The notes under the pieces are model-generated. The model searched no databases, was not told where the DNA came from, and saw only the letters and a list, made by a program, of their open reading frames with translations. 29,245 nucleotides of DNA, from IMG/VR virus record IMGVR_UViG_2778261122_000007, positions 1 through 29,245 of that record; one strand, written 5' to 3'. Of the stretch, positions 6,500-15,638 are shown in pieces. The first letter of the stretch is position 1, and every line of letters begins with the position of its first letter. Origin of the DNA: a virus (Duplodnaviria > Heunggongvirae > Uroviricota > Caudoviricetes). Made by a program: the position numbers and the translations under genes.

Positions 6500-6653
6500 T
6501 TTCATATTGGCGAGGTAACGGTAGTTAAGTAGAATTGCTGCGGGTGCTTGAGGCTATCTGCCTCGGGCATGAACACCAACGGCAGATAGAGAAAAGCCCC
6601 AGTTAACATTACGCGTCCTGCAAGACGTTTAACATTAATCTGAGGCCATATCT

Positions 6654-6713
6654 ATGCGACACATAGAGATTAGCCTCTTACGGACCGAAAGGTCAAGGAG
6701 AAGCAGGCTATGA
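6654..6713 (+). CDS. mok-like leader ORF (19 codons) translationally coupled to hok
   Basis: ATG 6654 to TGA 6711-6713; the stop overlaps the hok start (ctATGa). Classic mok is longer, so this is an inference. Confidence 0.3.
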   Translation: MRHIEISLLRTERSRRSRL

Positions 6714-9630: not shown

Positions 9631-9706
9631 GGCCCTTTAGCTCAGTGGTGAGAGCGAGCGACTCATAATCGCCAGGTCGCTGGTTCAAATCCAGCAAGGG
9701 CCACCA
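9631..9706 (+). tRNA. tRNA with CAU anticodon, Ile2 (lysidine) type, ileX/ileZ-like
   Basis: Manual cloverleaf: acceptor GGCCCTT/AAGGGCC, anticodon arm GCGACTCATAATCGC, T-loop TTCAAAT, encoded CCA; very close to my recollection of E. coli ileX. Confidence 0.8.
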
Positions 9707-9707
9707 A

Positions 9708-9784
9708 CCGCCACTAGCTCATCAGGAAAGAGCGTCAACCCTTTAAGTTGAGTGTGCGAGGTTCGAGTCCCCGGTGGCGGTCCA
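9708..9784 (+). tRNA. tRNA-like gene, anticodon loop CCUUUAA (apparent anticodon UUU, Lys); non-canonical C33 and an A-C mismatch in the T-stem
   Basis: Manual fold: acceptor CCGCCAC/GTGGCGG, D-arm GCTC/GAGC, anticodon stem TCAAC/GTTGA, T-loop TTCGAGT, encoded CCA. Identity is uncertain; it could be a degenerate or specialised tRNA. Confidence 0.5.
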
Positions 9785-9786
9785 GT

Positions 9787-9862
<76 letters not shown>

Positions 9863-9865
9863 TAT

Positions 9866-9940
<75 letters not shown>

Positions 9941-12028: not shown

Positions 12029-12568
12029 TTAGAAACTGCGTGGAGCTGTGGAAAGAATGGATGCCAGTTCTTCCTTCGATAAATCCCAGCTTCGATTTAC
12101 AGCGTCAATTTTCTTACACTCATCAAGCATTGCGTTATAGAGATGTTCTGTAAGTGAATGAGTATTGGCAATGGGCTGTTTCTGTTCGGGGAAGCGATCA
12201 AATTTCTGATACGCCTCAATGATACTGAAGTAATCGCATTCATTATTACCGTCGAAACCTGGAAGCTGAATTGCCCCATCATGTATTTTTAGATGATGGT
12301 CACGGACTAATTCTTTTTGCTCGTCATCACTAAGTTTCCTGAAAGCATTGGAAAGTCCGCGATACATATTCAAGACAGCAGTAACAAAATCACGATCTTC
12401 TTTACTTGGTTCGTCAACATCCAAATGTGAATATTCGGCCTTGATAACCCAATCATTACCAGATGACACAGCATATTTAACAAGCTGTGGATCAATATCA
12501 GTTTCGATACCTAGGTGGATGGCAATGTCACATAACAAAATGGTATTGATTTTATCTTTAATATCCAT
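12029..12568 (-). CDS. YfbU-family (UPF0304-like) protein; moron between the lysis and packaging modules
   Basis: 179 aa; recalled similarity to E. coli YfbU (VLNMY..L, GFDGNNE versus GFDAATE, FDRFPEQ region); opposite orientation to the flanking phage operons. Confidence 0.6.
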   Translation of the reverse strand: MDIKDKINTILLCDIAIHLGIETDIDPQLVKYAVSSGNDWVIKAEYSHLDVDEPSKEDRDFVTAVLNMYRGLSNAFRKLSDDEQKELVRDHHLKIHDGAIQLPGFDGNNECDYFSIIEAYQKFDRFPEQKQPIANTHSLTEHLYNAMLDECKKIDAVNRSWDLSKEELASILSTAPRSF

Positions 12569-12706: not shown

Positions 12707-13057
12707 ATGCCAGCACTAATCCCACGCGCCTGCCGTAAGCGTGGATGTGCAGGTACAACCACAGACAGTTCTGGTTACTGCGATAAACATCGTGGCGAAG
12801 GATGGGTACAGCATCAACGCGGACTGAGCCGCCACCAGCGTGGCTATGGCTCGAAATGGGATGCCATACGTGCGCGCATACTGAAGCGTGATAATCATCT
12901 GTGTCAGAACTGCCTGCGCAATGGCAGAGCCGTTGAAGCCAGAACTGTGGACCACATCATTCCGAAAGCTCATGGTGGCACGGATGCAGACAGTAACCTG
13001 CAGACTCTGTGCTGGCCCTGTCATAAAGCAAAAACAGCGCGCGAACGCATCAATTGA
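12707..13057 (+). CDS. HNH endonuclease (terminase-associated)
   Basis: 116 aa; N-terminal Cys cluster and HNH core (DHIIPKAHGGTDADSNLQTLCWPCH); immediately upstream of the small terminase. Confidence 0.85.
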   Translation: MPALIPRACRKRGCAGTTTDSSGYCDKHRGEGWVQHQRGLSRHQRGYGSKWDAIRARILKRDNHLCQNCLRNGRAVEARTVDHIIPKAHGGTDADSNLQTLCWPCHKAKTARERIN

Positions 13058-13204
13058 TAACAGCTCCCATCTGCAGGGGAGGGGCGGGTCAAATCTCTGC
13101 AACCCTGGCTGTTCAGTACCGCCGCCTGACCTTTCCTCGCATCGCCGCAGGTTCGAAAACTTTTTTTTGGAATGTGATTAAATGATTGATAGGTAAAATC
13201 GATT

Positions 13205-13687
13205 ATGTCAGGCCCCCCGAAAACCCCGCCACGCCTGCATTTGATACGAGGCAACCCCTCAAAGCGCCCCGTTAAAGACCCCAAAAAAACCGCTAAAAAG
13301 GATGAAAAAGGTCTCCCTAAAATTCCGCAACATTTAGGGTCGCAGGGGAAGTACTGGTTCAGGCGAATGGCGGAAGAACTGAATGCGGAAGGGATCATTT
13401 CTCAGCTTGATGCGCGTGCACTCGAGTTACTGGTGGAAGCCTACACCGAATACCGGCATCACTGCGAAACACTTGATGCTGAGGGGTATACCTACCGCAC
13501 GGAAACGCAGAACGGTGATGTGCTGATTAAGGCACACCCGGCTGCTGCGATGAAGGCGGATGCCTGGAAGCGGATCCGGGCGATGCTTGCAGAGTTTGGT
13601 ATGTCACCGGCAAGCCGGGCTAAAGTAAATACCGCCGGACCGGATGATGTTGATCCGCTGGCGGAGCTTTTAAAAGCGAGAGACTGA
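13205..13687 (+). CDS. terminase small subunit (P27 family-like)
   Basis: 160 aa; basic N-terminus (PKTPPRLHLIRGNPSKRP); immediately precedes and overlaps the large terminase. Confidence 0.8.
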   Translation: MSGPPKTPPRLHLIRGNPSKRPVKDPKKTAKKDEKGLPKIPQHLGSQGKYWFRRMAEELNAEGIISQLDARALELLVEAYTEYRHHCETLDAEGYTYRTETQNGDVLIKAHPAAAMKADAWKRIRAMLAEFGMSPASRAKVNTAGPDDVDPLAELLKARD

Positions 13688-15444
13688 TGGCAAAAGTGGC
13701 TGACGGGATCCGCTACGCCGAACGTGTTGTTGCAGGAGAAATTGTCGCTGGCGAATTTGTCCGTCTGGCCTGCCAGCGTTTTCTTGATGATCTGAAGTAC
13801 GGCGAAGAGCGGGGGATTTATTTCAGTGAATCCCGTGCGCAGCACATCCTGAATTTCTACAAATTTGTGCCCCATGTGAAAGGGGCGCTGGCAGGCCAGC
13901 CCATTGAGTTGATGGACTGGCATGTATTTATCCTCATTAATATTTTTGGTTTTGTCATTCCGCTGGTGAATGAAGAGACCGGGGAAGTTGTCATGCGCAG
14001 CGATGGCAGCGGACGCCCGGTGATGGTGCGCCGGTTCCGGACGGCGTACAACGAAGTCGCCCGTAAAAACGCAAAATCAACCCTGTCATCGGGTATCGGC
14101 CTGTATATGACGGGGGCAGATGGTGAAGGCGGTGCTGAGGTGTATTCAGCCGCAACCACGCGTGACCAGGCCAGAATCGTGTTTGAAGACGCCAAAAATA
14201 TGGTCAGAAAAGCCCGGTCGACACTCGGGCGGTTGTTTGATTTCAACAAGCTGGCGATTTACCAGGAGCAGAGCGCATCAAAATTTGAACCGCTTTCTTC
14301 GGATGCAAACAACCTGGATGGTCTGAACATCCACTGCGCCATTATTGATGAGCTGCATGCACATAAAACCCGCGACGTGTGGGACGTTCTGGAAACGGCA
14401 ACTGGTGCCCGTCTGCAGTCCCTTTTATTTGGTATCACCACGGCTGGCTTTAACAAGGAAGGGATTTGTTACGAGCAACGCGATTACGCCATCAAGGTAT
14501 TGCGAGGCTATAACAGCGACGTGGAGGGCGCGGTAAAAGACGACTCCTACTTTGCGATTATTTACACCCTCGATGAGGGAGATGATCCGTTTGATGAAAC
14601 GGTCTGGCAGAAAGCGAATCCCGGCCTGGGCATCTGTAAACGCTGGGATGATCTGCGTCGTCTGGCGAAAAAGGCGAAGGAGCAGGTCTCGGCGCGGGTG
14701 AATTTTTTCACAAAACACATGAATGTGTGGGTCACTGCCGAGTCTGCCTGGATGGACATGATTAAGTGGGAGAAATGCGAATATATTGCCCCACGACATG
14801 AGCTGAAAACGTATCCCATGTGGGTCGGCGTTGACCTTGCTCATAAGATTGATATCTGTGCGGCGGCAAAACTCTGGCGAACGGATAACGGGCATGTTCA
14901 TGCCGATTTTAAATTCTGGCTCCCGGAAGGACGGCTGGAACGATGCTCGCGGCAGCAGGCAGAACTTTACCGGAAGTGGGCGGAGATGGATAAGCTGATT
15001 CTGACGGATGGTGATGTTATCGATCATGCTCAGATAAAAAGTGACTTACTGGAATGGATTGGCGGTGAAAACCTGAGGGAACTGGGATTTGACCCGTGGA
15101 GCGCGATGCAGTTCAGCCTGGCACTGGCTGAAGAAGGGATACCGCTGGTGGAGGTTCCGCAGACGGTTCGCAATCTGTCAGAGGCCATGAAGGAAACGGA
15201 ATCACTGGTCTATGCCGGGCGTTTCCATCACAGCAATCATCCGGTCATGAACTGGATGATGTCTAACGTTACGGTAAAACCGGACAAAAACGACAATATC
15301 TTCCCGAATAAATCCACGCCGGAAGCCAAAATCGACGGCCCTGTTGCGATGTTTACAGCAATGAGCCGGATGCTGGTCAATAGTGGTGAACCGGAGCCGG
15401 ATCTGTCTGAACATCTGGTCAGCGTGGGCATCCGCTCACTTTAA
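13687..15444 (+). CDS. terminase large subunit
   Basis: 585 aa; ATPase region followed by a nuclease region (IIDELH Walker B-like); position and size. Confidence 0.9.
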
Positions 15445-15455
15445 CCGAGGTCATT

Positions 15456-15638
15456 ATGTTTCTGATAATTCTCGCGCCACTGGTGGGCGTGCTGGGTGCG
15501 CTTTTGCTGGCGTATGGTGCCTGGCTGATTTATCCCCCGGCGGGTTTTGTTGTTGCCGGGGTGCTGTGCCTGCTCTGGTCGTGGCTGGTGGCGCGATATC
15601 TCGACCGCACACAGTCGTCTGTCGGCGGAGGTAAATAG
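15456..15638 (+). CDS. small hydrophobic membrane protein (60 aa) between terminase and portal
   Basis: ORF from the track; two predicted TM helices ([24 protein letters not shown] / [16 protein letters not shown]). Confidence 0.45.

Follow-up and report, generated by a model that had tools for sequence, protein, structure and literature searches.

We analyzed a 29,245-nt stretch of viral DNA (hereafter the window, meaning the whole stretch), which is a lambdoid E. coli prophage, at the junction between an HNH endonuclease gene and the terminase genes. The features of this junction and of the genes that follow it are given below, with positions counted from the first letter of the window.

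12707-13057, + strand: HNH endonuclease gene, 116 aa, stop codon at 13055-13057
13058-13204, no strand assigned: non-coding interval between the HNH and TerS genes, predicted cos region, 147 nt, with a block structure kept in 31 distinct relatives
13076-13093, + strand: G-box, GGGGAGGGGCGGGTCAAA, on the side of the predicted cut that would be packaged last; mean pairwise identity 0.74
13094-13119, + strand: 26-nt spacer, ending in a conserved (G/T)AC before the predicted cut; identity 0.50 (over 13094-13116)
13117-13129, + strand: predicted cut region; mean pairwise identity 0.855
13120-13129, + strand: predicted cohesive-end 10-mer, CGCCGCCTGA, placed by register match to the cos sites and record ends of relatives
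13140-13168, + strand: cosB-like box, CATCGCCGCAGGTTCGAAAAC-T8 (T8 at 13161-13168), +11 to +39 from the predicted top-strand nick; aligned in relatives as a CAYCRCCGCAGGTTAGAAAAC-T6-8 box with mean pairwise identity 0.86
13190-13207, + strand: TerS ribosome-binding region (weak AGG) and ATG; relatives have ATTAATAGGAG-N8-ATG here
13205-13687, + strand: small terminase TerS, P27 family, 160 aa (Pfam Terminase_4 PF05119, E 4.5e-26; phrog_83, E 4e-55)
13687-15444, + strand: large terminase TerL, 585 aa, with ATPase and nuclease domains (PF03354 and PF20441)
15638-16879, + strand: portal (PF04860, E 5e-108)
16821-17507, + strand: S78 prohead protease (PF04586, E 1e-31)
17522-18727, + strand: HK97-fold major capsid protein (PF05065, E 3.5e-79)

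Portal, S78 protease and HK97-fold capsid genes follow the terminase in this order, and the packaging genes are all intact open reading frames. Judged by gene context, this is an HK97-type packaging/head module. TerL is 29% identical to HK97 gp2 (over 444 aa) and 38% identical to phiP27 L36, with a range of 36-38% over phiP27 and SfV; PF03354 and PF20441 match both the window TerL and HK97 gp2. The lambda gpA and gpNu1 terminase families gave no Pfam match, the only families matched being TerL_ATPase, TerL_nuclease and Terminase_4. Holin, endolysin and Rz/Rz1 genes lie upstream of the HNH gene. Of 5426 complete E. coli genomes, 981 carry the 1.2 kb that surrounds the HNH gene and the predicted cos, mostly at 95-99% identity.

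Several other features of the window were observed along the way. Between the lysis and HNH genes lies a 179-aa open reading frame on the minus strand (12029-12568) with a YfbU domain (PF03887, E 1.5e-10; phrog_6084); the DNA around it is AT-rich (32-43% GC), and we take it for a probable moron. The lysis cassette is immediately preceded by four consecutive tRNA genes (9631-9940, + strand), for Met(cat), Lys(ttt), Thr(tgt) and Gly(tcc). The early region carries a DicF antisense RNA (175-226, - strand, 76.7 bits) and the sok antitoxin RNA of a hok/sok-type locus (6542-6712, + strand, 101 bits). A predicted membrane protein of 60 aa is encoded between TerL and the portal (15456-15638, + strand; phrog_502, E 7e-27).

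A first-pass annotation of this DNA had put forward the gap between the HNH and TerS genes as the candidate cosN/cosB region. It gave the gap as 147 nt with a T8 run, and both details are exact: the HNH stop codon ends at 13057, the TerS ATG starts at 13205, and the T8 run at 13161-13168 is one of only two in the whole window. Taken from the window sequence alone, the motifs in the gap do not rise above chance; they are significant because they are conserved in relatives, and only through that. We compared 33 related loci from other Enterobacterales (genera including Proteus, Serratia, Xenorhabdus, Morganella, Pantoea, Erwinia and Klebsiella), in which TerS is 49-73% identical to that of the window. 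For the block alignment we used the last 150 nt before TerS in 31 distinct sequences, and conservation is given as mean pairwise identity. The cut region and the 13140-13168 box hold the two motifs quoted in the first-pass annotation and the T8 run, which coincide with the most conserved non-coding blocks among the 33 relatives; this supports the proposal of a candidate cosN/cosB.

In the TerS gene, identities at codon positions 1, 2 and 3 are 0.78, 0.82 and 0.49. Compared with 0.45-0.49 at TerS third positions, the blocks (0.74-0.86) show the constraint of codon positions that determine the amino acid, and the spacer is approximately neutral. As read from this alignment, the non-coding blocks are under purifying selection. 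Spacer length is fixed in the 31 relatives, with a lone 1-nt gap in one of them (L027). At the predicted cut the sequence reads (G/T)AC and then CGCCGCC, and the junction of (G/T)AC with CGCC is nearly invariant in the 31 relatives, while CGCAGGTT in the cosB-like box is invariant in all of them. Two further observations concern the flanks of these blocks. Directly after the T-run, nearly all relatives outside E. coli (L007-L039, about positions 1466-1476) have a GGGGnnCCCC palindrome; the window has GGAATGTGA in its place, at 13169-13180. In the first 20 TerS codons (13205-13264), third-position identity is 0.72, versus 0.45 in the rest of the gene (30 relatives), which suggests, on sequence comparison, an extra constraint at the DNA or RNA level that extends into the coding sequence.

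Comparing the gap with the cos regions of relatives, a check that the first-pass annotation had proposed, gave an alignment in a single register to phiP27, SfI, HK97 and Pm34. Five independent sources share this register: (i) in the phiP27 record, a 10-nt cos-site, CGCCCGCCCC, is annotated in the interval from the HNH gene to the TerS gene, and it aligns to window 13120-13129; (ii) the SfI 10-nt end, TGCCCGCCCC, comes from direct sequencing of virion ends (PMC3636060), and in the SfV sequence this 10-mer is preceded by GGAC; (iii) the HK97 record has ...GACCGCCGCCAAA at its right end (in longer form ...ATGACCGCCGCCAAA) and GTTTGAATTT at its left end; (iv) the linear record of Proteus phage Pm34, which matches the window in TerS type and cosB box, has ...GGAC at its right end and CGCCCCCTTA at its left end (read TerS-forward, it ends ...CCTAGGAC and starts CGCCCCCTTACC...); and (v) a 42-kb IMG/VR contig (L123) stops at ...CCCAGGAC, i.e. 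after GGAC. In each case the order is (G/T)AC, then the 10-mer, then the rest. The 10-mer sits at the right end of the HK97 record and at the left end of the Pm34 record, as expected from a 10-nt staggered cut.

Given this shared register, nicks are predicted at 13119/13120 on the bottom strand and at 13129/13130 on the top strand. HK97 virion ends carry 10-nt 3' overhangs (PMC9410871, PMC11331095), and by carrying over this length and polarity we expect a 10-nt 3' overhang here as well. The window 10-mer differs from those of phiP27 and SfV by an indel and by the last three bases. We infer that the window prophage is cut at exactly these bonds, and we regard the exact 10-mer, and likewise an overhang of 3' polarity, as likely.

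Two phage records were considered as sources of physical ends and set aside. In phage Evi (LR597642.1, L166), whose TerS is 100% identical to that of the window, an inverted TerS fragment replaces cos: at 1450-1600 of the record, the inverted 5' region of TerS stands in for all of cos and for the final third of the HNH gene, and the sequence is normal from the T8 run onward. In other respects the record is nearly identical, and the probable origin of this rearrangement is a misassembly where the physical ends of the genome lie. In phage Fraca (LR597645.1, L042), positions 1-130 of the record are a TerL-coding fragment fused to a cosB-like box (CTCTTTTCACATCGCCGCAGG), and the start of this record is an assembly artefact or that of a permuted record.

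The G-box is common to phiP27 and SfV, and a degenerate form is present in HK97 at the same distance from the cut. An exact 16-mer of the G-box, GGAGGGGCGGGTCAAA, occurs once in the window and in at least 121 stretches of viral contigs, almost all of them between HNH and TerS genes; among the matches listed, the surrounding HNH and TerS types come in many combinations. Of the 65 distinct viral downstream sequences among the same matches, 52 have the dinucleotide AC at offset 40-41, counted from the 16-mer start, which puts the cut 42 nt after that point. Five loci carry about 700 nt of inserted DNA between the HNH gene and the G-box, and the G-box is still beside the cut. Because it stays with the cut despite these insertions, the G-box belongs to cos and is not a 3' untranslated element of the HNH gene.

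These observations also bear on whether cos lies in the gap but is nicked elsewhere, for example in the G-box or beside the T8 run, or with another overhang length or polarity. The window 10-mer is identical to no mapped one, the relationship of its TerS and TerL to those of phiP27, SfV and HK97 is distant, and in 8 of the 65 distinct viral sequences (among the matches listed) the AC is one or two nucleotides nearer to the 16-mer, which gives 40 or 41 nt instead of 42. However, the five independent sources place their ends in one register after (G/T)AC, Pm34 does so with the TerS type and cosB box of the window, and the (G/T)AC-CGCC junction hardly varies among the 31 relatives. We consider displaced nicks, or a different kind of overhang, improbable.

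With the cut placed at the 10-mer, the two sides of cos can be compared between phages. Relative to phiP27, the window HNH protein is 89% identical, TerL 38% and TerS only 20%, and DNA similarity to phiP27 ends at window position 13126, inside the 10-mer. Directly after their 10-mers, phiP27 and SfV share the right half T5-7-A-YACCCGCGAAA. The window is without this sequence and has CCTTTCCTCGCATCGCCGCAGGTTCGAAAAC-T8, which goes with a TerS that is 20-24% identical to theirs; the HK97 right half is CTAACCCGATTTTTTT. The right box varies with TerS type and the left half is constant, the pattern that one would predict for a left half devoted to cleavage and a right half devoted to TerS. Hybrids exist among viral contigs (e.g. 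...GGGACCGCCCGCCAACCCTTCCTCGCATCGCCGCAGG), in which a phiP27-like left half (the spacer and CGCCCGCC) is joined to a right half of the window type. From these natural left/right hybrids, it follows that the cos 10-mer acts as a mosaic joint.

What the G-box does is a more tentative matter. It may serve as a cosQ-like signal that positions cleavage or terminates packaging, although we would not bet on it at even odds. With the same reserve, we suggest that it could be a new and widely shared cos element of HNH-assisted phages, read by the HNH/TerL machinery and not by TerS: a ruler that would set the cut 42 bp (four helical turns) downstream, a counterpart of lambda cosQ, in a modular cos whose halves recombine freely at the 10-mer. 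Recombination between a cleavage half (HNH gene, G-box, spacer and cut) and a recognition half (cosB box and TerS) would explain the mix-and-match of HNH and TerS types. The tail of the G-box occurs in two variants (TCTCTG and GTTCAG); when these were compared with HNH, TerS and TerL clades, within-class and between-class identities barely differed for all three proteins. A string search of the literature did not find the G-box string, and the HK97 literature that we found places the TerS site downstream of the cut and discusses nothing upstream of it. What is mildly new, a modest novelty, is that the G-box is conserved and keeps its distance from the predicted cut in phages with very different TerS types.

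The cosB-like box is unique in the window, with 0 occurrences expected by chance. It is found only alongside TerS of the window type; TerS proteins of the phiP27/SfV and HK97 types have other boxes at this place. The minimal site of HK97 TerS spans +15 to +29 and consists of C:G pairs next to an A-tract, disruption of which abolishes binding (PMC11331095). The window box joins G/C-rich bases to A4-C-T8, as the HK97 site does, and for this reason we assign it, by analogy, as the predicted small-terminase binding site; we favor this assignment somewhat over its being something else. The T-run starts at +32 in the window versus +24 in HK97. The likeness to the HK97 A-tract is only positional, because the two TerS proteins are not detectably related and their structural match is not significant. 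Sequence similarity between the window TerS and HK97 gp1 is undetectable (BLASTP E 8.4), and gp1 is without a Pfam match. An AlphaFold model of the window TerS (pLDDT 69) had HK97 TerS (6Z6E/8POP) as its top TM-scores, at 0.33/0.47 with E of about 1, which is not significant; the value of 0.47 is normalised to the target. PF05119 matches the TerS proteins of the window (E 4.5e-26), phiP27 (E 4.6e-23) and SfV (E 2.3e-21), and those of phiP27 and SfV are 49% identical to each other.

The composition of the gap fits its earlier description only in part. As a whole it is not GC-rich (49%, against 51% for the window); it is bipartite, and the description holds for the first 93 nt (62% GC at 13058-13150), while the last 54 nt (13151-13204) are 26% GC. 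The short dyads named in the first-pass annotation lack inverted symmetry: what repeats is CGCCGC, in direct orientation, at 13120 and 13143. A search for inverted repeats of at least 6 nt found none linking the two quoted motifs within the gap, and their sole complementarity is the 5-bp ACCGC / GC(A)GGT.

These properties matter for a second explanation, that the blocks are late-operon signals for transcription, translation or RNA function (a terminator, promoter or leader) with no part in packaging. A T8 run and a ribosome-binding region do lie just upstream of TerS, and third-position identity is unusually high in the first 20 TerS codons (0.72). Against such signals, a scan of the gap found no terminator-like site and no plus-strand promoter-like site. 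The gap folds no better than shuffled sequences (z +0.5 as RNA, +1.3 as DNA), RNAalifold gave -6.7 kcal/mol with a covariation term of -0.7 and no conserved covarying structure, and an Rfam search matched no family within the gap. Moreover, the ends of genome records fall within this region. We therefore think it very unlikely that the blocks are regulatory signals alone; parts of the gap could have a regulatory role that coexists with cos.

The description of the upstream gene as an HNH endonuclease adjoining the terminase was borne out. Its product matches Pfam HNH PF01844 (E 7e-17) and phrog_144 'HNH endonuclease' (E 6e-41), and TerS starts 147 nt after the gene. The catalytic motif residues are D82-H83...N97...H106, the zinc site CxxC...CxxC is C66/C69/C102/C105, and the N-terminus has an additional C9/C14/C25/H28 motif. 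At the amino acid level the protein is 89% identical to phiP27 L34, 73% to SfV orf53 and 37% (over 70 aa) to HK97 gp74; its best solved structure is the GVE2 HNH protein (5H0M), matched over the full length with E 3.5e-14. All 33 related loci, from many genera, have an HNH homologue upstream of TerS, in agreement with the claim that this position is a trait of HK97-like cos phages. HK97 gp74 binds TerL and stimulates the cos cut (PMC9410871, PMC13595911), which requires gp74 (PMC13595911), and it is already established that terminase-adjacent HNH proteins aid cos cleavage (PMC13595911, PMC12967558). We predict from these matches and this synteny that the window HNH protein is an accessory nuclease of the terminase and the functional counterpart of gp74.

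The gene could instead encode a selfish homing endonuclease, in which case its place beside the terminase would be incidental and the gap ordinary intergenic DNA. HNH domains are found in homing enzymes, and several phage records label the homologue 'homing endonuclease'. However, the gene keeps its position upstream of TerS in all 33 loci and lies beside the G-box in most of the viral matches listed; the matches are to HNH proteins of the packaging type, full length (GVE2 5H0M) or partial (HK97 gp74); the context shows neither intron nor intein; selection acts on the non-coding blocks; and gp74 is needed for the cos cut (PMC13595911). Homing is therefore a highly implausible account of the locus. 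Headful (pac) packaging, or a defective remnant whose site is out of use, has no positive point in its favor and is just as implausible, given that TerL matches only one sequence among solved structures, the cos-type HK97 large terminase (6Z6D, E 1.6e-35), that relatives have defined, discrete ends, that the packaging genes are intact, and that the element recurs at mostly 95-99% identity in 981 of 5426 complete E. coli genomes, although the prophage could be defective elsewhere.

We conclude that the gap is the predicted cos of a lambdoid E. coli prophage with a packaging/head module of the HK97/phiP27 kind, and we put this reading, with the mechanism proposed below, at a probability of about 0.8, a figure that mostly reflects the placement of cos in the gap. 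Judged from the aligned sequences, it is very likely that cos lies within 13058-13204. In the proposed mechanism, the P27-family TerS would bind the 13140-13168 box (CGCAGGTT...AAAAC-T8) on the concatemer, just downstream of the cut, and would then recruit or arrest TerL. The TerL nuclease and the HNH protein would nick twice, 10 nt apart, around CGCCGCCTGA, producing 10-nt 3' cohesive ends. Packaging would proceed to the right, starting at TerS and passing the head, tail and lysis genes before the HNH gene, and would stop at the next cos. The G-box (13076-13093), 42 nt before the cut and packaged last, might help to position or trigger this terminal cut, in the manner of lambda cosQ. Which protein binds which block of cos is something that we infer. 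The HNH-cos-TerS layout is the expected and ordinary one for this type of phage, and the interpretation in the first-pass annotation was right.

The value of this reading is a testable cut prediction, at base-pair level, for a very common type of E. coli prophage. It would be useful for prophage annotation, for virion and transduction sequencing data, and for building cos plasmids. For the packaging field, it offers the hypothesis that the cut is set by a G-box at a fixed distance, independent of which small terminase is present.

Among known systems, HK97 shares with the window the order HNH - cos - TerS - TerL - portal - protease - capsid, the Pfam families of TerL, a homologous HNH protein, and a T/A-tract downstream of the cut. 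The left half of its cos reads GGGCAGGGGGGGGGATCAAA, a 26-nt spacer, and GAC before CGCCGCCAAA; that of the window reads GGGGAGGGGCGGGTCAAA, a 26-nt spacer, and TAC before CGCCGCCTGA. The two differ in the small terminase, gp1 being unrelated by sequence to the Terminase_4-type TerS of the window, and in the sequence of the TerS site, which is CTAACCCGATTTTTT in HK97. In addition, the window HNH protein has an extra N-terminal CCCH motif and is without the helical insertion region of gp74.

The Stx2e phage phiP27 and the Shigella phages SfV and SfI are closer on the left side of cos. An identical G-box, the spacer length, the 10-mer register and the TerS family (PF05119) are common to phiP27, SfV and the window, whereas the 10-mers differ (CGCCCGCCCC in phiP27 and TGCCCGCCCC in SfI, versus CGCCGCCTGA), as do the right halves (T5-7-A-YACCCGCGAAA versus CATCGCCGCAGGTTCGAAAAC-T8). 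Proteus phage vB_PvuS_Pm34 (KY420199) shares with the window its TerS type (about 63% identity), the cosB-like box and the G-box, and the bottom-strand nick is predicted at exactly the position where the linear database record of this phage has its ends. It differs in host genus, in its 10-mer (CGCCCCCTTA), and in carrying the GGGGAACCCC palindrome, which the window is without.

The cosQ-cosN-cosB arrangement of lambda offers a more distant parallel, with an upstream element that is packaged last, a nick site, and a downstream TerS-binding region beside the TerS gene. Lambda has 12-nt 5' overhangs, a gpNu1/gpA terminase, no HNH protein, and an IHF site. It thus differs from the window in terminase family and overhangs, and its cos has no sequence similarity to that of the window. 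Finally, GVE2 has a thermophilic Gram-positive host, unlike the window prophage, but its HNH protein (5H0M) matches the window protein over the full length, including the N-terminal cysteine motif, and is likewise encoded beside the terminase.
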